Positions 4,549-32,000 of a DNA stretch of 32,000 nt are shown here, piece after piece. A program made the translations under genes and the position numbers. The DNA is from Candidatus Saccharimonadota bacterium (GTDB lineage: Bacteria; Patescibacteriota; Microgenomatia; UBA1406; GWC2-37-13). The first letter of the stretch is position 1; the number at the start of each line of letters is the position of its first letter. The stretch spans positions 450,001 to 482,000 of the forward strand of contig CP064967.1 in assembly GCA_016699265.1 (NCBI GenBank), read 5' to 3'. The notes beneath the pieces are model-generated. The model searched no databases. It saw only the letters and a program-made list of their open reading frames with translations, and had not been told where the DNA came from.

Positions 4549-7136
4549 TTATTGAGTTTGTTCTGATCCTTGACCCATCGGATTATCTTTGAAAATCTGA
4601 GCAATCGTCTCATCAGGAATATCGGTTGAGTTCCCAAGAATATTTTGTCCTATGTCGTTTGCATCGATAACTATTACGCCACCATTAAAAAGTTTCTCTG
4701 CAGATAGTGCAAGATTGTCATGAAGATACTCGGCAATAACTTCGGTAACTTTTTGGGATTTTCTGGACCCAATTTAGCTGAAACGTTTGATGGATAGAGC
4801 GAGTACTCAGTAGGACCGTCTATCGATCTCGCTGATTCACCAGCTACTTTGTAGAAAATACCTTTTAATCCGAACGGCTTAGTAATTGCTGAGAGAAGTG
4901 AGGCTATAAATATCTTCGGCAGGCCAACCTCTTGAATAGCTAATTGCATAGTCCAAGGACTTCCTAGACCAATGCCATATGGGGTACGGGTTACATATTT
5001 TGACAGTAGCTTTGCCCATAGTCCAGTCTTGATGTCCCAGATAAAATAGGAGCGCCCCTGTGAAATTGCTATAATTTTTTCAGAAACAACCACGAACCAC
5101 TTTGACCTTGTACCGTAGATCTTAGAACTTAGAACATAGTCTGATATCTTCCGCACATAGTCGTCGCCCTTCTGAAATACCTCAGTCTTAATTAAATTTC
5201 TGGCATACGTCTTTTCGCCCACCTTTATTTCAGCTGGCTTTTCTAATGTCGTTGACTTTATGGACTTTATAGACTGCATGGACTGGTCAAGATTGGGAAA
5301 AAACTCCCTCAGCCACAACTCCACATTGAGAACTCTCCAGAACAGGAGCGTGTCCGTGGTTTTCCCTTCTATAAACTTTTGAAATCCCTTCAGCACCTGA
5401 GCTTGGTTGAAATATGTTCTGGTTGCAAAAGACGGAGACAGGAAAACAGAGTATATTTTATTCTTCATTCTCATGAACCACTCTTCCTCTGGGGTCGTGA
5501 AGCCAATTTTATTTCTTCGTTTGTGTATAAGAGGAGGCAGCAAATCCTTAACGCTGTCTCTTAGTATCTTCTTGTTCCAACCTGACTTTATGATAGCCTC
5601 ATCGGGTAAACTAAAAATTAACTTAATAAGATTAATATCTAGAAAAGGTACTCGTCCTTCGATGGAAAACCTCATACTATTTTTGTCCTCATAACGGAGG
5701 AGTGATGGCAGACTGTTGTAAAATACGTCTTGGATAAGACGAAATTTCAAGTTATCTTTCACGACACGGAAACCATTCCCCGAGTATTTGTTAAAGAACT
5801 TCTTATTAAAGATTGAGTCTGGCCTAAATCTTCCAAATGGAAGTTTAAGCTTTAACAAAGAGAACTTTAAGACTACATCCAAAGAACTGAACATCTCCTT
5901 AAAAAGCGTCCAATTCTTCTTTTCCTTACGTAGTTGTTTTAAGAAAATAAAATAATAAGGTAAGTAACCTGCCATCATCTCATCAGCTCCTTGGCCGTCC
6001 AATAATACCTTCACATGCTTACTCGCCTCTCTCATCACAGCAAACTGAGCATATGGACCGGTGCTAATTGTCGGCTCTTCTTGGGTACGTATAAAATCTT
6101 CAATCTCTGAAAAAAAATCCTCAGGTAAGGGATGAACTTTAAAACTTTTTATTTGCCCACCTGCCTCTTTTAAAATATTGATAAGTTCGTCGATGTAATG
6201 TTCTTCGTCATTTGCTGACTTTGGGAAGACCGCAGAAAAGGTGTTCTGTACGGCGCCAACTGACTTTGCTTCATCGGTTCTATTTTTTTGGAGTTTATTC
6301 ACAACACTCACAACCGTTGATGAGTCGAGGCCTCCCGATAAACAGGTTCCGACAGGTACATCTGAAATAAGTCTTAATTTAATAGCCTCCTCAAGCGCTA
6401 ATTTAAATTCCCCCACCTGTTCTTTCTTTAGGTTGGATACATTTGACTTTAGACTTAATTCCTTAAGATCTTCTTCGAGATTTGAAAAATATCCATTTTT
6501 AAGATTTGTTCCTCTTAGACTGAGGTACTGACCCGGCATCAGACGGTAAATATTCTCAAAGAAAGTCTCAGGAGTGTCATCATGTACGCGATACTTTAAA
6601 TATCGATAAATCACCTTATCGTTCGGTCTTGTTTTTACAAGTCTAGAGTTAAGAAGAGGCTTAATCTCGGAAGCAAAGATTAAACTTTTATTGGGTAAAA
6701 TTGAGAAGTAAAGAGGTTTGATGCCAAAGTGATCTCGAGCTAGAATAAGCCTCTCTTTCTCTTTATCGAATAAAGCAACGGCAAACATTCCATTAAATCT
6801 ATCAAAACAGCTATCTCCCCACTCTTCATAGGCGTGAACAATTACCTCGGAATCTGATAGTGTTTTGAAGCGATGTCCGTTGCCCTCGAGCTCCTTTCTT
6901 AGTTGTTTATAGTTGTATATTTCTCCGTTATAAACAGTTACGATATTCTTATCTTCATTATAAATAGGCTGGTCGCCGGTCTTTAGGTCGATAATTGCAA
7001 GTCTTCTATTTAATAGAGATACTTTTTCATTTGAAAAGATCCCTTCACCGTCCGGACCTCGATGTGAAAGATCTTTAGAAAATTGCTTAATAAGTTTTTT
7101 GTTTTCAAAACCGTAGAAACCTGCTATGCCACACAT
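4549..7136 (-). CDS. Asparagine synthetase (glutamine-hydrolysing) fused to a C-terminal CofE-like (F420-0:gamma-glutamyl ligase family) domain, with a 1-nt frameshift near the 3' end
   Basis: N-terminal MCGIAG nucleophile, DSEVIVH, and PP-loop SGGLDSS. From about residue 640, VVVSEKIIAISQGR... is CofE-like. The ORF-track frame ends at 4674. After the coding-strand A5 run (plus-strand T5 at 4750-4754) the -1 frame reads VTEVIAEYLHDNLALSAEKLFNGGVIVIDANDIGQNILG...DNPMGQGSEQTQ* and stops at 4549-4551. Confidence 0.85.
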
Positions 7137-8888: not shown

Positions 8889-9530
8889 ATGTCACAAGCT
8901 AAGCAGAAATCAAAGCCAACTAGCGGTCCAAAGACCCTTCCAAAATACAATCTAACACAACTTCTTAACAGAGTTAATGATCGGTTTCCCAATTTCTTAC
9001 TCGGGCTTACGGTCTTTGTTCTAGCTATTCTTGTCGGATCTCTCTTCTTTCAAAACCAAGAACTATCAACGCTTAAAATTCCGCAGTCAATAACTAAGCT
9101 TTTGGAGGTAAGACGAATGAGGTAGAACAAACGACACCTAAATCCTATACAGTTAAAAGGTGACACTCTTTGGAGCATTGCCGAAGAAGCGTACGGATCG
9201 GGCTATAATGCATTTGACCTAGCCAAGCTAAATAATATTCAGAATGCAGATGAGCTCAACGAAGGAGCCGTTATTTCACTTCCAGCTCTAGAGTCAAAGA
9301 ATCCAACTCGCGGCGAGATCGCAGGAGGAGGTTACACAACAGTTCAAGAAACCACGCAGGTAGATAAAACTAAATCATCTAGCTATAAAATCGTAACAGG
9401 GGACTCACTTTGGTCAATTTCTATGAAGGTCTACGGCAATCCTTACCGATGGACCGAACTATGGAGAGCTAACCCAACTATTGAGAATCCTGACTTAATC
9501 TATGCAGGAAACACGCTAAATATAAAGTAA
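8889..9530 (+). CDS. Membrane-anchored protein with two LysM domains, reading frame disrupted between 9100 and 9158
   Basis: ORF 8889-9125 encodes a TM N-terminus. From 9159 the same frame encodes GDTLWSIAEEAYGSGYNAFDLAKLNNIQ... and YKIVTGDSLWSISMKVYGNPYRWTELWRANP...AGNTLNIK* (stop at 9528-9530). The linker ...FGGKTNEVEQTTPKSYTVK is only readable in another frame between the T4 run (9100-9103) and the A4 run (9155-9158). Confidence 0.75.
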
Positions 9531-23474: not shown

Positions 23475-24468
23475 GTGAAGGCTCAACGATCTTCATAATT
23501 GCACGAGCAAGTTTTTCTGGATTATGACGAATGAGACTTCGTTTTAGGGCATCACTCTTCGATTGAGTGCTCTGTTCGGATCCTAAAAAGTCCTCCCGAA
23601 TAACCTTGAGATTTTCACTGTCCTCGAGATCGTTCTTCACCGGAAACTCATGCTGCTCTTCATAGAGCTTGAGAACTTCTGCGGGAAGGAGCCCATCGTT
23701 CACGATTACATAATCTATGGGAGCATGTAGTAAATACTTCTCAAGAACCCGTAAATGGTCCTGTGCTGAGAAACCGTAGGTCTGACCGTACTTGGTCATT
23801 AAGTTCAGCGTATAGATCTTTTTAGCTGAGGAGTTTTTGATCGCTTCTGCAATCCCTTGTACGAGAACGTTCGGGAGAATACTTGTATATAAATCTCCTG
23901 GCCCTATGAGAATATAGTCAGCTTCCTTTATTGCTTGTAGTGCGTCAGGATTAGCTACTCCGTTCGGTTCTAAATATAATTTATTAATTTTGAGTGTCCC
24001 GTCATGCTTCGGCTCATCAATGAAATGCTCCTCATTGAGAATGAGTCCATTCTCGTATTCAGCAAAGAGATGTGTATTCGTATAGGTCACCGGAACCACG
24101 GTTCCATTAATTCGTAAGATCTGCCCTGTTTTGGCAATTGCATCTTTTTGAGATCCTAGGATGTCAGAAAGAGCTGCCATAAAGAGATTTCAAAGGTCAT
24201 TCCAGAAATTCCTTCTCCCTTTTCAAAACGATACATGAAGAGTTTGCGCATCAGTTCCGATTCTCCGTCTTCTGCTGCGAGCGCAACAAGACAGGAACGA
24301 ATATCCGAAGTTGGCAGCAATCCAAACTCATCTCTGATACGCTTATTGCTCCCTCCCGAATCACTCATCGAAACGATCGCAGTGAGATGTACTGGATATC
24401 GTGTAAGTCCTTTGAGAATTACAAACTTCCGGTCCCTCCTCCTAAAACAACAATGTTTTCTTTTTCAT
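23452..24468 (-). CDS. yvcK: YvcK/GlmR (CofD-like, UPF0052) family protein, three 1-nt deletions in homopolymers
   Basis: Restored reading is MKKKNIVVLGGGTGSFVILKGLTRYPVHLTAIVSMSDSGGSNKRIRDEFGLLPTSDIRSCLVALA...RFEKGEGISGMTF.NLFMAALSDILGS... The shifts fall at plus-strand T4 (24456-24459), A3 (24423-24425) and T3 (24188-24190). Confidence 0.85.
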
Positions 24469-24470
24469 CT

Positions 24471-26261
24471 CTATTTTACCGTAACTGATTTTGCTAAGTT
24501 CCTTGGTTTATCTGGATCCTTCAAGCCTTTTTGCGAGAGCAGTGTAGTAAGCGAGTAGTTGCGAAACAACAATCTCTAAAATTAAGGTCGAGTCGCCTGC
24601 ATCATCGACATTAAAGTAAAAGTCAAAAAACCGGATGAGGTTTTGGGCTCAAACCGATGATATAGCCACCACGTGCGCTTACTTCCTGAGCATTTGAGAT
24701 GATCTCATCATAGGTTTCATCAAGGGGCAGAACAAAGACCGGCGTCCCCTTTCTCCACGAGGGCGATTACACCGTGTTTCAGCTCGCCACCAGCGAATCC
24801 CTCAGCATGAAGGTAGCTAGTTTCTTTTAACTTCAGGGCGAACTCCAGAGCTGCAGGGTAAGACAAACCTCTTCCGAGAACATACATATGCTCTTTTTTT
24901 GATAGATTCTTTGCGAGTTTCTTTATCTTCGATATGTATGCAGGTAACAATAACTTCTTAATACCCAGAGCTGTTTTCTCAAGAGATCTTCTTCCCTCCT
25001 CTGCTTTACCGGCAAGCGTAGATGCGGTGTAAAGGAGAACAGAGATCATCGCAGTGAATGCCTTGGTCGATATTACCGCTTTCTCGGGACCCGCTCCAAG
25101 CAATAAACGAAAGTCGGTGATACGGTAGAGGGTTGACCCAAGTACATTGGTGACCACTGCAGTCTGAGCTCCTCGTTTTTTAGCATGTTGGACAGGTTGC
25201 ACAACATCGATCGTCTCACCGCTTTGAGTTATTGGAACGATGAGTGAGTCCTTTGTGAGATAGTCCTCTAAATATCCGAATTCCGACCCAATTGCATTAT
25301 TTACATGGCTTTTTGCAATTCGAGAAAAGAGATATGTTCCTGCTAGCGCAGCGTATGAAGCTGTGCCACATCCAATGAAGAAGGTTCCTTTGGCTTTCTT
25401 GATTTTGCTTGCTAGAGCCGCTACCTGTTTTCCGTACATTGTCGCGATATTGAGGATTACTTGGGGTTGCTCATGAATCTCTTTAATGAGAAAGTGGGGA
25501 TATTTACCTAAGGATGCCGACTCTACCTTCCATGTAATCTTCTGAAACTCAAATTTTTTCTTTTTTCCGGAAGGTAACTCAATAACATGCATTTCCGATT
25601 CAGAAAGAATTGCCATTTCATTATCATCAAGAAAGTACAGATCTCTAGTATATTTGAAGATACCAACTGCATCGGAAGCGACATAGAATTCTTTTTTACC
25701 CTGCCTACCGGCAGACAGACTCTTTCCGATTACAAGTGGTGAGCCATTCTTTACGCATACGATCTCCTTCGAAAGAGTGTACATAACCACGATCGCATTC
25801 AGTCCTTTGAGTTGATTGAAGGCATTCCGTACTGAGGTCGCAAATCCCTGCCCATTCCTGAGTTCAAAATCGATAAGGTGAGGAATGACCTCAGAATCTG
25901 TATCAGAAACAAAATCATAACCATGCTTTATGAGATTCTTTTTAATCTCAATGAAGTTTTCGATGATTCCGTTATGAACCACAGCTATCGTTCTTGCTTT
26001 ATTGGTGTGGGGATGCGCATTTGCTACAGTTACTCCGCCATGAGTTGCCCAACGGGTATGGCCAATTCCAAGTGAGCTTGCTGAAAGGGATATGGTTGCG
26101 TCTCCGATCTTTCCAATGTGCTTTTCCGAAGTTATTTTCTTATCATGTTTAATGCTTATCCCCCAGGAGTCGTAGCCTCTATACTCGAGCGTCTTGAGTC
26201 CATCAAGAATCATCTGGGCTGTGTTTTGCTCGTGACCAACGTAGCCAAAAATTCCGCACAT
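24471..26261 (-). CDS. glmS: Glutamine--fructose-6-phosphate aminotransferase, three 1-nt insertions near the 3' end
   Basis: MCGIFGYVG N-terminus plus two SIS domains. The track ORF stops at 24720. Removing one base at each of C4 (24746-24749), A6 (24625-24630) and T5 (24528-24532) gives ...EKGTPVFVLPLDETYDEIISNAQEVSARGGYIIGLS...LLAYYTALAKGLKDPDKPRNLAKSVTVK* with the stop at 24471-24473. Confidence 0.9.
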
Positions 26262-26827: not shown

Positions 26828-27550
26828 CTACCTAGTAACTTGGTTTGTCATCTCCTTAGCGATTGCTTTAGCCTCACTAATCATTAAAAGAATTCCGTTA
26901 GCTGAGGATGTATTTCGACTCTCAAGATCTTGTAAAGGTAACTCACTATTAAGATGTACATTACCCATATCGGAAATAATGAACTCAAGATTTCCATCTG
27001 CATGATAGATGGCAGATAATACATCGTGAGCATTAAACTCAATCCCGTGCTTGGCAGCAGTAATTGCAATTACTGAGAGTCTGGCTTTCAAATCCTGTAA
27101 TCTTTCTGGGTTTTCGATATCGTACTCCGCAAGTGATTTCACCGTGGACGAGTTATTACGAAAAACGTTACCGATAACAAATCTCTTTGTCTGATTAGAT
27201 GTAATGAGGACATCATTCCAATCTTTCGTCAAGTCTGTCATGAGAATTCCAGAGTACCTTTCTCCTTCCTTGACAAGGCGGAAAGTGCTCGGAACCGGAA
27301 GACCTGCCTTTTTAAGTTGTACGTAAGATTTAAGTGCGTGCGCCGCTCTACCTTCACTGTGATATTCCTTAAACGCTAGTCCTCCAACAGATCGTTCTCT
27401 AATTGATGCTCGGACGTGTCCAACCTGCCCCTCTTCTCCTCTGCCGAGTGAGTCTGGTCTGTCATGTTGAAACTCTAATCGACTTGGTTTGGCGACCGTA
27501 ATACTTTTTTTTATATCGGCTTTAATAAGCACAACATTTCTATGTTCCAT
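26828..27550 (-). CDS. Atypical protein-kinase-like fold protein
   Basis: Glycine loop LGRGEEGQVGHV, Lys in LAFKEY, HxD-like NAHDVL, and a DFG-like ISDMGNV. The start is set at MEHRN (27550), with TATACT 5 nt upstream. Confidence 0.55.
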   Translation of the reverse strand: MEHRNVVLIKADIKKSITVAKPSRLEFQHDRPDSLGRGEEGQVGHVRASIRERSVGGLAFKEYHSEGRAAHALKSYVQLKKAGLPVPSTFRLVKEGERYSGILMTDLTKDWNDVLITSNQTKRFVIGNVFRNNSSTVKSLAEYDIENPERLQDLKARLSVIAITAAKHGIEFNAHDVLSAIYHADGNLEFIISDMGNVHLNSELPLQDLESRNTSSANGILLMISEAKAIAKEMTNQVTR

Positions 27551-27602
27551 AAGAAAGTATAGCAATTAGATCGTCTATTGGGTTCTTTACTAGGTGATTA
27601 CA

Positions 27603-28169
27603 TCATGCAACTATTACCCCTGCCATATTATCAATCAGTTCTTCTACCTTGCGTGGATCAGTAATAAAGACGTGTTTATATGGTAATTCTTCGGTTTCAC
27701 TAGCATCATTTTGATCTCTGGGACCTAACTCAATTACCGTTATAAGACCTTTAAGAGTGCTTAAATCAGATGAAAGTCCTTTAACCAAACCGTTTCTGAC
27801 TATTTCACGGTCAGAGGGTGAAACGATAAGAACAATACCAAGAAGTCCTTCCAAGTCTTGCAAACCAAGCCTTCCACTTTCTTTTCCTCTTTTATGAAAT
27901 GTGTGAGTTATAAAGTCGTCAACTACCGATTTCGGAGAACTATCAACTAGAACTCCAACTTGCTTAGTATATAAATCAGAGTGGGGGTACAAAACGGCAA
28001 AGTCAATAGGTCGTTGACCATCACCCTCATTCAATAGTGCGAAGGTCTCAGCGATTAGTGGATTCTTTACCTTAGGCACTACGAGCCCAACATGCACTGG
28101 GTGACTGATGAGAAATATTCTCTCTGCATCACCAGGAAAGTACGTTCTACCTACTTCTTTTTGTCCCAT
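27603..28169 (-). CDS. Hypothetical protein
   Basis: 188 aa ORF with no motif recognised. Its promoter is at 28243-28271. Confidence 0.55.
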   Translation of the reverse strand: MGQKEVGRTYFPGDAERIFLISHPVHVGLVVPKVKNPLIAETFALLNEGDGQRPIDFAVLYPHSDLYTKQVGVLVDSSPKSVVDDFITHTFHKRGKESGRLGLQDLEGLLGIVLIVSPSDREIVRNGLVKGLSSDLSTLKGLITVIELGPRDQNDASETEELPYKHVFITDPRKVEELIDNMAGVIVA

Positions 28170-28242
28170 AAATATGCTTCTTGAAATTACTCCTATCTGC
28201 TTACCTAAAATGGTAAAAAGTGAAGGTTTAAGAAGTACTTAT

Positions 28243-28271
28243 AGTATACCAGAAAATAGGCTCTAAATCAA
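28243..28271 (-). promoter_or_regulatory. Promoter TTGATT-17 nt-TATACT containing the conserved 12-mer TTAGAGCCTATT
   Basis: Plus-strand agtata at 28243-28248, aatcaa at 28266-28271, and aataggctctaa at 28255-28266. Confidence 0.5.
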
Positions 28272-28276
28272 TACAG

Positions 28277-28687
28277 TTATTTGCTAGGTTTATAACGAAA
28301 TACTGTCTGTAATCGACGATTTGTAGGAAAAGCTATACCGTTAATTTTATGCCCTGCAATCACTCCACTCAAGTCAACAACTTGCCTAGGTTTTAACCCT
28401 TCAGTACTTAGATCTTCCATAGTATCTAGGAATGCAACAGTAGGAGTGAGTGTCTCGGTTTTTTTGATACCAAGTGATTCTGGGTCTAGAACAACAACTT
28501 CATAAAAATGGGTAGTTGTTCCTACATCTATCGTTTCACCAAAAAAACTGGCTACAGCTGGACTTTCCTCTCGGAAAGCAAGTACTTTTCCCTCCTCAAT
28601 TTTTCGTTTTGTAAATGGTATGGGAACCGTCCAGTCGCGCTCGATACCCGAATGGACCCTAATTTGACGTCTCCGTTCAATTGTCAT
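28277..28687 (-). CDS. Hypothetical small protein, M-T-I-E-R-R family
   Basis: 136 aa. The 5' end TAAGCTATGACAATTGAACGG is near-identical to that of the 28777-28980 ORF. Confidence 0.6.
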   Translation of the reverse strand: MTIERRRQIRVHSGIERDWTVPIPFTKRKIEEGKVLAFREESPAVASFFGETIDVGTTTHFYEVVVLDPESLGIKKTETLTPTVAFLDTMEDLSTEGLKPRQVVDLSGVIAGHKINGIAFPTNRRLQTVFRYKPSK

Positions 28688-28694
28688 AGCTTAT

Positions 28695-28700
28695 AGTATA
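28695..28700 (-). promoter_or_regulatory. -10 element TATACT, 7 nt upstream of ATG 28687
   Basis: Plus-strand agtata at 28695-28700. Confidence 0.45.
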
Positions 28701-28776
28701 ACATACTACATCTAGAATTTCTATATAAGAATATTTCTGAAAAGTTCGTAACGAGATTTCGATTTTTAGTTCAACA

Positions 28777-28980
28777 TTACTTATTTCTCGTAAGATTTGG
28801 GTACTTCGCAATAGCGCGATGGGGAGATATAATTTCCACTGCTCCGTTATGATCAACTCGTATAATTTTCCCGCTTATTACAGCTACTGTGCTGCTACTA
28901 AGTAGCACGGAATGTGGATCTGCTGAGTCCGGGAAAGTGATAGTTATGGGTTTTGCTATTGGGGACCGTTCTATACTCAT
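28777..28980 (-). CDS. Hypothetical small protein, M-S-I-E-R family (short paralogue)
   Basis: 67 aa. N-terminus MSIER and tail VAVISGKII...YPNLTRNK, compared with GVIAGHKI...RYKPSK in the 136 aa ORF. Confidence 0.5.
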   Translation of the reverse strand: MSIERSPIAKPITITFPDSADPHSVLLSSSTVAVISGKIIRVDHNGAVEIISPHRAIAKYPNLTRNK

Positions 28981-29078: not shown

Positions 29079-29540
29079 ATGATAGTTATGAGGAAAGCTT
29101 CACAAAAAGCAGGTTTTACTCTTGTAGAGTTATTGGTGGCAATAGGCATCTTTGGAGTATTAGTTGCGATTACGATAGTTGCTATAAATCCAGGAAGACA
29201 GTTCTCCCGTGCAAATAACACCAAAAGGCAAAGTGACGTTACTGCTCTTCTCGATGCGCTCGGACAATACTCTGCCGAAAATTCGGGAAGACTTCCCGCC
29301 ACAATAACTACAACGAACAAGACAGTAAGCAATACAGGAGCCGATATCTGCGGTCTGTTGGTACCAAATTACCTATCTGCCCTTCCTGTAGATCCAGGTA
29401 CAAATAACGGAACAGCTATTTCTAGTTGTGCCGGCGCTTACACCACAAACTATGAGGTCGCTCTTGATGCGAGTGGCCGCCTCATGGTAACTGCCCCCGC
29501 AACAGAGCTTGGAGGTGCGGTTATTACAGCAACTAGATAG
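29079..29540 (+). CDS. Type IV pilin / pseudopilin-like protein with a prepilin N-terminal cleavage-methylation motif
   Basis: KAGFTLVELLVAIGIFGVLVAI (G|FTLxE motif), followed by a Ser/Thr/Gly-rich globular part with two Cys. Confidence 0.85.
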   Translation: MIVMRKASQKAGFTLVELLVAIGIFGVLVAITIVAINPGRQFSRANNTKRQSDVTALLDALGQYSAENSGRLPATITTTNKTVSNTGADICGLLVPNYLSALPVDPGTNNGTAISSCAGAYTTNYEVALDASGRLMVTAPATELGGAVITATR

Positions 29541-29844
29541 TGAGTGATGTCGCCTATATGCTTTGAACGATGTGAGCCTAGGGATTCCAGAATGGAACAC
29601 TTGGCAGGATTATTTTAACAGGATTGCTCACGCCTTTACTCATTACCAAAACTCAGCTATTTAGCTCCAGTCGAGTGTATAACGTTAGAACCTTTTTAGC
29701 TCAAATTTAAGACTCTATTTCAATAAAGAAGACATTCTACTAACTCAAGAATAGTATGAAAAGAAGTAGATACGACGAAAAATTCTAATGAACATACATC
29801 TTCTGTTTTTCATTGTTAAGAAGACCTAAATCCTAGGTCTGTAG

Positions 29845-29850
29845 TATAAT
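29845..29850 (+). promoter_or_regulatory. -10 element TATAAT, 6 nt upstream of the YcaO ATG
   Basis: TATAAT at 29845-29850 and ATG at 29857. It is preceded by the palindrome AGACCTA-5 nt-TAGGTCT (29822-29840). Confidence 0.5.
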
Positions 29851-29856
29851 AAAGCC

Positions 29857-31179
29857 ATGTTCAATACTCTAAATGAGAAAGACGAACCGAGAGTCCTAGC
29901 AACCTTAGACAATATTTCAAAGATTTATCCAAAGCTGTCCTTTATAAAAGAGCTGCATAAAATTAAGCAATACTCCGACGAACCAAAATATTTCCAATAT
30001 GTGGTTAGAATGGAAGACGATCTCAAAAACACAGATGGCCACACGTCAAATGAAAAAAAAGCTGGTGGAGGATCTTTTTTATCGGAGCAACTGGCACTAT
30101 TGAAATGCTTAGGGGAAGCAATTGAAAGATTCTCATGCTCAACTTATAAAAACACGGACCTTGTAACTTCGTCTGCAGAGAAATTAGAAGGTAGTATCGA
30201 CGTCACTAAAATCGTCGGCTTAACAGAAAGACAAAAAAAACAAAATAAAATGTTTAACGTCACTCCAAAGTCTGTTTTACGTTGGAAACAGGGTTACTCA
30301 CTTGGTACTGGCAAAAAAGCCTATATCCCCGCCCAACTTATCTACCATAATTATAAATTTGACTCTCAGGAAAATATGTTTTATTTACCAATCAGTACAG
30401 GAGCTGCTGGTGGAGGAAGCTTGACCGCGGCTTTAACGAGAGGAATATTTGAGATAGTAGAAAGAGATTCATTTGTTATTGCGTATTTAAATAAGATACG
30501 CTTCCCAAAAGTAAGTCTAGACTCAGTAAAAGATGAATACGTCCAATTCCTACTTGAGATGTTAAAACGATATAGGCTTGCAATTCATGTTATAGATATT
30601 ACTAACGACTTAAAGATACCCTGCTTTCTGTCAATAATAGTCAATAAGACAGGTATTGGTCCTGCTGTATCTACTGGTCTTAAGTGCCATCTTGACCCAA
30701 TCGAGGCGATAACAGGTTCTATAGAGGAAGCATTTAATGTTCGTACCTGGACTCGACAAAATTACGAGGACAATCCTAAGAAAGAAAAGAAAAACATGAG
30801 TGGAAATATAAGTAACACTGATCAGAGAGGGGTTTATTGGTACCAAAAAGAAATGATACATAAATTGGATTTTTGGCTAGACCAAAATGAAAAAACCTAT
30901 AACTTAAGCCATGTTAAGTTATCACAACAAAAAATTCTCAGCACCACTGTGCAATCCCTTTTTAAGAAAGGATATGAAATATACTACGCTGATGTAACGC
31001 TACCACTATTAAAGAGGGTCGGTTATAAAATTGTTAAGGTAGTAATTCCTGGATTACAACCTTTCTACATGAACGAGATTTTGCCATATTTAGGAGGCGA
31101 AAGATTAACAGAAGTACCTAAAAAACTACCTTATCAATTTTCACGCACTTTAAATAAGGTGCCACATCCTTTTCTATGA
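29857..31179 (+). CDS. YcaO-domain protein (cyclodehydratase-type)
   Basis: 440 aa. LKCLGEAIERFS, PISTGAAGGGS, GIFEIVERDSF, and a proline-containing C-terminus KVPHPFL. Confidence 0.85.
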   Translation: MFNTLNEKDEPRVLATLDNISKIYPKLSFIKELHKIKQYSDEPKYFQYVVRMEDDLKNTDGHTSNEKKAGGGSFLSEQLALLKCLGEAIERFSCSTYKNTDLVTSSAEKLEGSIDVTKIVGLTERQKKQNKMFNVTPKSVLRWKQGYSLGTGKKAYIPAQLIYHNYKFDSQENMFYLPISTGAAGGGSLTAALTRGIFEIVERDSFVIAYLNKIRFPKVSLDSVKDEYVQFLLEMLKRYRLAIHVIDITNDLKIPCFLSIIVNKTGIGPAVSTGLKCHLDPIEAITGSIEEAFNVRTWTRQNYEDNPKKEKKNMSGNISNTDQRGVYWYQKEMIHKLDFWLDQNEKTYNLSHVKLSQQKILSTTVQSLFKKGYEIYYADVTLPLLKRVGYKIVKVVIPGLQPFYMNEILPYLGGERLTEVPKKLPYQFSRTLNKVPHPFL

Positions 31180-31955
31180 AAATCAATAACGAATTAAAAA
31201 AGAAATTTAATTTACTGCCATATTCTGAATCGCAACAGTACCATCATGCAACAAAACTTACAAAATTTATAGAAAAAAAAGGTTCTATAAATAATGGTCC
31301 CAAAGAGTGGTTTCATATTTTCTATAAAGGCTATCCAAAATTCGAAAAAATCGTATTACCGAAAAAAATCAATTTGGATAACGTAAAACTCCTACATGCT
31401 TTAAGCAAAAGAAAGACACTGAGAGAATACTCAGGAAAAGAGTTAAATTTTTCAAAACTAGGTACATTGCTTTACTATTCAGCAGGATTAAGAAATAAAA
31501 ATCGTAAGGCTGGGAATAGATTCTACCCTTCTGCTGGAGCAAGGTATCCTCTTGAGACATACATAGTAAGTTTTAATACTAAAGGGCTTAAACAGGGAAT
31601 TTATCACTACCACCTAAGAAGTGGCAAATTAGAGTTTCTTTGGACAAAGAAACATTTTAAGGAAGTGCTTATGAAAAACTTCAACCAAGATTGGATATCG
31701 AACGCAGGAGCATTGATCGTTATTTCAGCAGTTTTTTGGAGGAATGAAATGAAGTATCGAGACAGAGGCTATAGACATACTTTAACAGAATTAGGAGCTT
31801 TAACACAAAACATATATCTTCTTTCAGCGGTTCTAAAATTAGGCTGCGCTTCAATTGGAGGTTTCATTGACGATAAATTAAACTCATTATTGGATTTAGA
31901 TGGTGAAGATGAGTCCGTATTAGGAGTCATAGCGGTCGGTGAGATTGACAAATAG
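31176..31955 (+). CDS. SagB-type dehydrogenase (nitroreductase superfamily)
   Basis: 259 aa. TLREYSGKELNFSKLGTLLYYSAG...NRFYPSAGARYPLETYIV...YRHTLTELGALTQN. It overlaps the YcaO stop by 4 nt. Confidence 0.85.
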   Translation: MKINNELKKKFNLLPYSESQQYHHATKLTKFIEKKGSINNGPKEWFHIFYKGYPKFEKIVLPKKINLDNVKLLHALSKRKTLREYSGKELNFSKLGTLLYYSAGLRNKNRKAGNRFYPSAGARYPLETYIVSFNTKGLKQGIYHYHLRSGKLEFLWTKKHFKEVLMKNFNQDWISNAGALIVISAVFWRNEMKYRDRGYRHTLTELGALTQNIYLLSAVLKLGCASIGGFIDDKLNSLLDLDGEDESVLGVIAVGEIDK

Positions 31956-32000
31956 TTTTTTCTGATATATATTTACGGTCGTAAGGGTTAGGGGGTGATT

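Follow-up and report, generated by a model that had tools for sequence, protein, structure and literature searches.

Toward the end of the window analyzed here, the whole 32,000-nt stretch of contig CP064967.1 from an ultra-small Microgenomates bacterium of the Candidate Phyla Radiation (CPR), genes for a YcaO cyclodehydratase and a SagB-type dehydrogenase are followed by a gene for an 81-aa cysteine-rich peptide that begins just past the window edge. We regard it as very probable that these genes form a biosynthetic cluster for a peptide that is made by the ribosome and then modified after translation (RiPP), one of the linear azol(in)e-containing peptide (LAP) type, acting on the 81-aa peptide. 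With distinctly less confidence, and still as the reading that we favor, we propose that the locus as a whole is a LAP, or thiazole/oxazole-modified microcin (TOMM), cluster of the CPR type, and that its enzymes recognize their substrate without a partner protein.

The contig was extended beyond position 32000 through assemblies with identical sequence, giving a locus context of about 42 kb (the 32-kb window and about 10 kb downstream). Exact matches of the YcaO and SagB proteins were found at 17 loci in NCBI, JGI, ENA and Logan assemblies, among them GCA_017991865.1 ('Microgenomates group bacterium'), which is 100% identical to the window over the common stretch; the same contigs recur in many samples. 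Positions in L002, an assembly of the same strain, are converted to window-equivalent positions by adding 21175. For the wider family, a YcaO profile scan of 185,579 species genomes yielded 80 loci, and 3–17 kb were inspected at each of the other loci.

The enzymes and the adjoining precursor gene

The first-pass annotation had described the two overlapping genes as a translationally coupled TOMM core, and profile searches bore this out (coordinates in Table 1). The YcaO protein, a D protein consisting of the YcaO domain only, scored 192 bits against PF02624 and 253.8 bits against TIGR03604 (TOMM_cyclo_SagD; cutoff 219.25), and the SagB-type protein scored 140.1 bits against TIGR03605 (antibiot_sagB; cutoff 78.4) and 63.9 bits against PF00881, all of them scores well beyond chance. 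The two open reading frames (ORFs) overlap by 4 nt (ATGA), and SagB is translationally coupled to YcaO through this overlap. The ExxER motifs E87/E90/R91 and E199/E202/R203, which bind ATP and Mg in characterized YcaO enzymes, were invariant among 31 homologues, and the C-terminal PHPFL was nearly so; similarly, the Lys-Tyr pair of SagB (K193-Y194), a motif that is required and catalytic in characterized TOMM dehydrogenases, was invariant in 36 homologues. The AlphaFold2 (AF2) model of the YcaO had a predicted local distance difference test (pLDDT) score of 93.2 and aligned over its full length to the YcaO domains of LynD, MusD, the Methanocaldococcus jannaschii YcaO and McbD. The SagB model (pLDDT 84.6) had a confident nitroreductase core, for which the best structural matches were ThcOx, Ava_2154, BmdC and McbC, while residues 1–55 were modeled as low-confidence coil and short helices with no winged helix. 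A thioamidation function found no support, as the YcaO scored 91.3 bits against the methanogen marker-1 equivalog TIGR03266 (cutoff 365), and no TfuA was present among the Pfam-annotated neighbor genes, where the SagB oxidase is found instead. The YcaO-SagB genes (29857–31955) have a G+C content of 35.1%, compared to 39.7% window-wide, a mild deviation that could reflect horizontal acquisition or simply amino-acid composition.

A strong Shine-Dalgarno sequence at the very edge of the window had been taken in the first-pass annotation to announce a further gene, possibly a precursor, and extension of the contig revealed exactly this: the ATG at 32003 opens an ORF of 81 codons, MSRSELLLEARPIARPTSRPVTKGIPTSAGSCGGGSCGGGSCGGSCGCDGCCSASSQGCACDSCQIFPAKLKNKGVRVVKK, with a Cys/Gly/Ser-rich core. 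The entire stretch after the SagB stop codon, including this ORF, is identical in all 16 loci, from independent assemblies, that reach past SagB, and the ORF was annotated by gene callers in some of these assemblies only. A promoter-like element directly 5' of the gene, matching 11 of 12 consensus positions, was the top-scoring site of the region. However, the overall number of such sites equaled the shuffle expectation, and its assignment as the promoter of the precursor gene is therefore suggestive only.

Peptides of the same kind follow sagB at loci with increasingly divergent YcaO proteins, including ORFs of 72 aa in L018 (62% YcaO identity to the window YcaO), 65 aa in L019 (47%), 72 aa in L102/L103 (47%), 107 aa in L020 (43%) and 65 aa in L104 (42%). 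The L020 precursor (9147–9470) carries two core cassettes, each ending in DGAL/NGAL-x-x-D-x-KM. Alignment showed that precursor orthologues of 65–84 aa differ in length by whole codons (in-frame indels), and retain a leader motif [ED]-[AS]-R-P, a core G-C-D-[GSA]-C-C-S, and a C-terminal extension ending in [RKH]K. A protein-database search with the precursor returned three clusters only, a scarcity that fits with such short ORFs often being left uncalled. The heterocycloanthracin/sonorensin precursor model TIGR03601 gave 11.7 bits against a cutoff of 35 (E=0.32).

Two other sources of a precursor were considered and rejected. The 316-bp spacer upstream of the YcaO gene (29541–29856) had been described as holding only short ORFs of 10, 13 and 23 aa, none of them Cys/Ser/Thr-rich; the absence of a suitable core stands, while the sizes do not, since ORFs of 22–33 aa are found when GTG and TTG starts are counted, and the earlier figures presumably counted ATG only. 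No Rfam match was found in this spacer. Elsewhere in the window, the few Cys-containing ORFs all lie inside or antisense to real genes.

The gene content suggests a plausible course for the pathway. The precursor would be translated from its gene 3 nt past the window by means of the strong Shine-Dalgarno sequence, probably under a promoter of its own. Using ATP, the YcaO would cyclodehydrate Cys, and possibly Ser, residues of the core to thiazolines and oxazolines, and the coupled SagB flavoprotein would then oxidize these azolines to thiazoles and oxazoles. With no E1-like (C) or Ocin-ThiF-like (F) partner bearing a RiPP recognition element (RRE), the YcaO or a YcaO-SagB complex would bind the leader directly, the likely point of contact being the conserved [ED]-A-[RKIL]-P motif, which reads LLEARP in this genome. 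A neighboring kinase, together with a histidine phosphatase in relatives or an HExxH protein here, would probably act in tailoring, leader removal or self-protection, and candidate roles include phosphorylation as a tailoring step, immunity through a phosphorylated prodrug, and removal of the leader by the HExxH protein.

The nearest relatives of the YcaO among the 80 loci came almost entirely from Patescibacteria/CPR genomes (Woese-, Levy-, Roizman-, Gottesman-, Giovannoni-, Wildermuth- and Saccharibacteria), and a neighbor-joining tree placed this CPR clade apart from the partner-containing TOMM YcaOs. A YcaO of about 420–460 aa has a SagB of about 250–260 aa right behind it in 30 of 30 related loci, most of which also carry a Cys-rich ORF of 58–116 aa immediately upstream or downstream of the pair. 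Many of these adjoining peptides share the leader motif [ED]-A-[RKIL]-P, in forms such as LRDAKP, LTEAIP and LIDALP, or more loosely MRDAKA. The leader is a different one, KPxIxxKK..., in a second YcaO subclade, and leader type therefore tracks YcaO subclade in the tree. An ORF related to Pfam Peptidase_M16 adjoins the pair in another subclade only, M16 being the Pfam annotation of the L021 member. Among the relatives, a Saccharibacteria contig (L032, 2833–8672) contains two tandem YcaO-SagB pairs, and a Wildermuthbacteria locus (L072, 7860–10020) contains a fragmented pair that is apparently pseudogenised.

Leader recognition and competing explanations

Hidden Markov models (HMMs) built from genuine TOMM partner proteins were run on six-frame translations, and gave no E1-like or Ocin-ThiF-like match in the window or in the 10-kb downstream extension, in agreement with the first-pass annotation, which had seen no such partner in the window. 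The lack extends to 30 of the 31 loci of the CPR clade, the exception being L025; by comparison, the models matched 52 of 56 non-CPR TOMM loci, 8 of which had contributed to the training set. An adjacent ThiF/E1-like gene is found in L025, L037 and L056, and two of these three pass TIGR03882 ('TOMM precursor leader peptide-binding protein'); in Bacillus relatives, a TIGR03882 domain is fused to the YcaO (142.8 bits in L063). It was from these proteins that the models were built. Two places where a recognition domain might be concealed within the enzymes themselves were rejected: the N-terminus of the YcaO (residues 1–75), since the AF2 model matches simple YcaO domains from one end to the other, and the N-terminus of SagB (residues 1–76, outside PF00881), where the coil and short helices described above take the place of a folded RRE. 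This segment of SagB may serve as a flexible docking arm.

Several considerations weigh against the reading that we favor. Judged by its sequence, the YcaO is a canonical D protein of the SagD family, whose biochemically studied members rely heavily on a C or F partner to turn over efficiently. No curated precursor family in Pfam or NCBIfam was matched by the precursor, no transporter or recognized immunity gene was found nearby, the LAP chemistry is read from the genes, and the promoter call is a consensus match. In addition, each genome was inspected in part (about 42 kb here and 3–17 kb at the other loci), and a partner or discrete RRE protein could be encoded elsewhere. It is therefore conceivable that this is a canonical, partner-dependent TOMM synthetase for which an E1-like or Ocin-ThiF-like protein, or a small discrete RRE protein, acts in trans from another part of the genome, and the ThiF-like gene with an RRE-like N-terminus that lies 212 nt upstream in the clade locus L025 is in keeping with such an arrangement. 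We nevertheless consider a partner in trans unlikely, given that 30 of 31 clade loci have none within the inspected 3–17 kb, that in 52 of 56 non-CPR loci there is one, either adjacent or fused, and that the rest of the cluster is a tightly conserved, compact module while its flanks change completely. Moreover, a CPR genome measures about 1 Mb, and the partner genes of RiPP enzymes nearly always lie in the same cluster as the enzyme genes. Partner-independent recognition may be extended to the conjecture that the whole CPR clade of SagD-type YcaO/SagB synthetases has dispensed with the E1-like/RRE partner in favor of direct recognition of an [ED]-A-[RK]-P motif, and that one subclade has added kinase/phosphatase handling of the product. 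We put this broader proposal forward only tentatively, as possible rather than probable.

The nature of the peptide itself allows for another interpretation, in which its cysteines serve mainly in metal binding or redox chemistry, as in a metallothionein- or chalkophore-like peptide, with the thiols mostly free or only a few of them cyclized, and the product would be something other than an antibiotic or toxin of the LAP type. The CxC, CC and CxxC spacings of the core and its conserved Asp (GCDGCC, CDSC) would suit such a function, as would the absence of an exporter or immunity gene nearby, and the homologous locus L019 lies beside cupredoxin/HMA genes. That metal-gene neighborhood, however, occurs once only, and aromatic azoles are to be expected where there is a dedicated oxidase. 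Fully cyclized LAPs such as microcin B17 and the heterocycloanthracins typically have cores rich in Gly, Ser and Cys; the TIGR03601 match of the present peptide is weak. Overall we judge a metal or redox peptide to be improbable. Least credible of all, and in our opinion scarcely worth entertaining, is a function outside RiPP biosynthesis, in which the target of the YcaO would be a housekeeping protein or one of the cell surface, for instance a ribosomal protein or the neighboring pilin, and the SagB-like protein would be an ordinary nitroreductase. The first-pass annotation had suggested that the substrate might be something other than a bacteriocin; a non-RiPP substrate is unneeded, however, because a dedicated precursor is present and the pilin neighbor is not conserved. 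JGI names the YcaO 'ribosomal protein S12 methylthiotransferase accessory factor', but this is a generic label transferred to YcaO-family proteins. The upstream neighbor here does encode a pilin, and in L021 and L022 the pair is flanked by type IV pilus genes; the pilin neighbor is nonetheless missing from most loci, and the pilin was rejected as a substrate on that account. The dedicated Cys-rich precursor, found here and in most related loci, largely refutes this explanation, which is further at odds with the scores above the curated TOMM-specific cutoffs and with the invariant SagB-specific Lys-Tyr pair.

Relation to known systems

LAP clusters have been described previously in CPR genomes. 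Sharrar et al. (2020, mBio, PMC7298704) reported a cluster in Microgenomates_ANG_785 comprising a YcaO, a nitroreductase, a peptidase and an 84-aa precursor, together with 110 further LAP clusters in 93 CPR genomes, 89 of which had the nitroreductase beside the YcaO. The first-pass expectation that a RiPP system would be unusual in a CPR genome is thus not supported by that survey. The present locus resembles those clusters in its host group, in the placement of the YcaO beside a nitroreductase/SagB, and in an adjoining precursor of about 80 aa; a homologue that we found (P0122) was called as 84 aa, like the published precursor. The published description names no C or F partner, as is the case here, but the example includes a peptidase, whereas in this genome the further conserved genes encode an APH-like kinase and a small HExxH protein. 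PMC7298704 does not take up the missing partner, the leader motif or the association with a kinase/phosphatase pair, and in the literature searched, in which later metagenome surveys only list clusters, we found no biochemical study of CPR LAP clusters or discussion of the missing partner. Because such clusters were published in 2020, the locus confirms and sharpens that report and is no new discovery; it joins a known, bioinformatically described cluster type, which is refined by the clade-wide lack of a partner, the leader motif and the association with a kinase/phosphatase pair.

Microcin B17 (McbBCD/McbA) offers a parallel in organization: its precursor core is likewise rich in Gly, Ser and Cys, and its YcaO (McbD) and its SagB-type dehydrogenase of about 270 aa (McbC) are discrete proteins. 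Both enzymes of the present locus match the McbC and McbD structures (6GOS/6GRI, chains C and D), at a low identity of 13–22%. However, McbBCD needs McbB, an E1-like protein that holds the leader, and no counterpart of it was found here. Among cultured organisms, the nearest YcaO proteins (25–29% identity) belong to the Bacillus heterocycloanthracin/sonorensin clusters, whose precursors have repetitive Cys/Gly cores; the weak TIGR03601 match noted above is to this precursor family. The Bacillus enzymes comprise a fused C-D cyclodehydratase with a leader-binding domain and a SagB of about 520 aa, in contrast to the domain-only YcaO and 259-aa SagB described here. The best matches to solved structures were the cyanobactin enzymes LynD/TruD (LynD, Foldseek E=6e-27, TMq 0.76) and ThcOx (E=2e-16). 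The E1-like and RRE domains that are fused in LynD and TruD, and the RRE-like domains at the N-terminus of ThcOx, are all missing from the enzymes of this locus.

LAP YcaOs are reported to be accompanied by a C or F partner 'in most cases', and only the bottromycin enzymes are named as standalone YcaOs (PMC7136475), acting without an E1-like, ThiF-like or TfuA partner. The bottromycin precursor has a C-terminal follower, and the precursor here has a conserved C-terminal extension ending in [RK]K. Unlike the bottromycin YcaOs, the present YcaO belongs by its sequence to the SagD TOMM family, is accompanied by a dehydrogenase, and would process a peptide with an N-terminal leader at many of its Cys residues.

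If the pair does work without a recognition partner, it would constitute a two-enzyme, multi-azole system of about 700 residues that could be useful for peptide engineering, as well as an exception to the rule by which SagD-type cyclodehydratases require a partner with an RRE. Should direct recognition prove to be clade-wide, no smaller self-sufficient azole synthetase acting at multiple sites would be known, and an episymbiont could be using the product on its host, as a weapon or as a signal. CPR bacteria have tiny genomes and depend on hosts, and a conserved, apparently highly expressed Cys-rich azole peptide would be a candidate effector in interactions between episymbiont and host or with competitors. 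To our knowledge no CPR natural product has been characterized so far, and the cluster offers a candidate for the first.

Accessory genes and other features of the region

Table 1. Features of the YcaO-SagB locus. Positions refer to the window or, beyond 32000, to window-equivalent positions; corresponding L002 positions are given in brackets.
Feature	Position	Strand	Evidence or remarks
Pilin-like (prepilin-type) gene	29079-29540		PF07963 N_methyl 28 bits; TIGR02532 26.6 bits (cutoff 16.3)
Perfect 7-bp inverted repeat AGACCTA-N5-TAGGTCT	29822-29840	.	100% complementary; just 5' of candidate -10 box
TATAAT hexamer	29845-29850	+	6 nt 5' of YcaO ATG; read from sequence
YcaO cyclodehydratase (D protein), 440 aa, YcaO domain only	29857-31179	+	PF02624, TIGR03604
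SagB-type flavin mononucleotide (FMN)-dependent azoline dehydrogenase (B protein), 259 aa	31176-31955	+	TIGR03605, PF00881
Promoter-like TTGACA-17-TATATT	31945-31973 (L002 10770-10798)	+	11/12 consensus positions; overlaps last SagB codons, directly 5' of precursor gene
Shine-Dalgarno GGGGGTGA of precursor gene	31991-31998	+	ATG 4 nt later
Precursor gene (A), 81 aa, 10 Cys	32003-32248 (L002 10828-11073)	+	outside window, starts 3 nt past edge
APH-like (APH-fold) kinase, 305 aa	~32259-33176 (L002 11084-12001)	-	convergent with precursor gene; PF01636 45 bits
168-aa HExxH protein, HELFH motif	~33199-33705 (L002 12024-12530)	-	convergent with precursor gene; no significant family match

Downstream of the precursor gene lies a gene for a kinase of the aminoglycoside phosphotransferase (APH) fold, in which the motifs HNDLHND and IDFE can be read intact. 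Its best curated match was the class V lanthipeptide kinase LxmK (NF038156), at 24.7 bits against a cutoff of 315, which is a lead and not membership; the sequence supports membership in the generic APH fold only. A kinase gene adjoins the cluster in 11 of about 33 loci, all of them in the subclade nearest to the window YcaO and with entirely different outer flanks. In 9 of these 11 a gene of the histidine-phosphatase superfamily (His_Phos_1) stands beside the kinase, while the HExxH protein takes its place only in L002 and L018. The kinase and phosphatase could function in phospho-tailoring, or in self-protection through a phosphorylated prodrug in the manner of streptomycin-6-phosphate. Sequence searches of the PDB with the kinase and the 168-aa HExxH protein gave no match, and PADLOC gave none.

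Past the cluster is a tRNA-Lys(CTT) gene (L002 12653–12726; window-equivalent ~33828–33901), at which strains diverge. In the strain variants L007, L011 and L013, identity to L002 ends 6 nt into the 3' end of this tRNA gene, and a defense island (L007 4575–12696) replaces the region of a lipase-like gene. The island encodes PLD-like and HTH proteins, Gabija GajB (342 bits) and GajA (369 bits), a Cas4-like PD-(D/E)XK nuclease and an MmeI-type restriction-modification protein.

Upstream of the YcaO gene, there is no Shine-Dalgarno sequence between the TATAAT hexamer and the start codon, and the hexamer may act as the -10 box of a YcaO transcript that is leaderless or nearly so. It is absent from the consensus promoter scan because it has no good -35 hexamer. 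The perfect inverted repeat next to it may be a putative operator. The adjacent gene had been called pilin-like in the first-pass annotation, and the profile matches in Table 1 agree. The YcaO-SagB module in L021 and L022 is surrounded by genes for T2SSE, T2SSF, a prepilin peptidase and several pilins. The proximity of pilus and pilin genes to the module may be a coincidence, since CPR genomes are rich in pilus genes and the association is missing at most loci.

Between the GNAT and pilin genes (26828–28980), four minus-strand ORFs encode proteins of 245, 188, 136 and 67 aa. The three longest had no Pfam match, and the run is present in every assembly of this strain. All four were rejected as partners of the YcaO-SagB pair, as they are not conserved beside it at other loci. 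By Pfam, the other large ORFs of the window have housekeeping functions only (GatCAB, AsnB, M48 peptidase, LemA, Pol X, glycosyltransferases, Wzy, methyltransferases, GlmS and GNAT). Compared to the L001 and L002 assemblies of the same strain, positions 24190–24750 of the window contain eight indel events, mostly of single bases at short homopolymer runs, which shorten glmS (513 versus 596 aa) and cofD (242 versus 339 aa); this cluster looks like an assembly or consensus error in the present record and not like true pseudogenes. An 820-aa asparagine-synthase-type protein (GATase and Asn_synthase domains), encoded on the minus strand at 4674–7136, carries about 200 extra C-terminal residues with no Pfam match.

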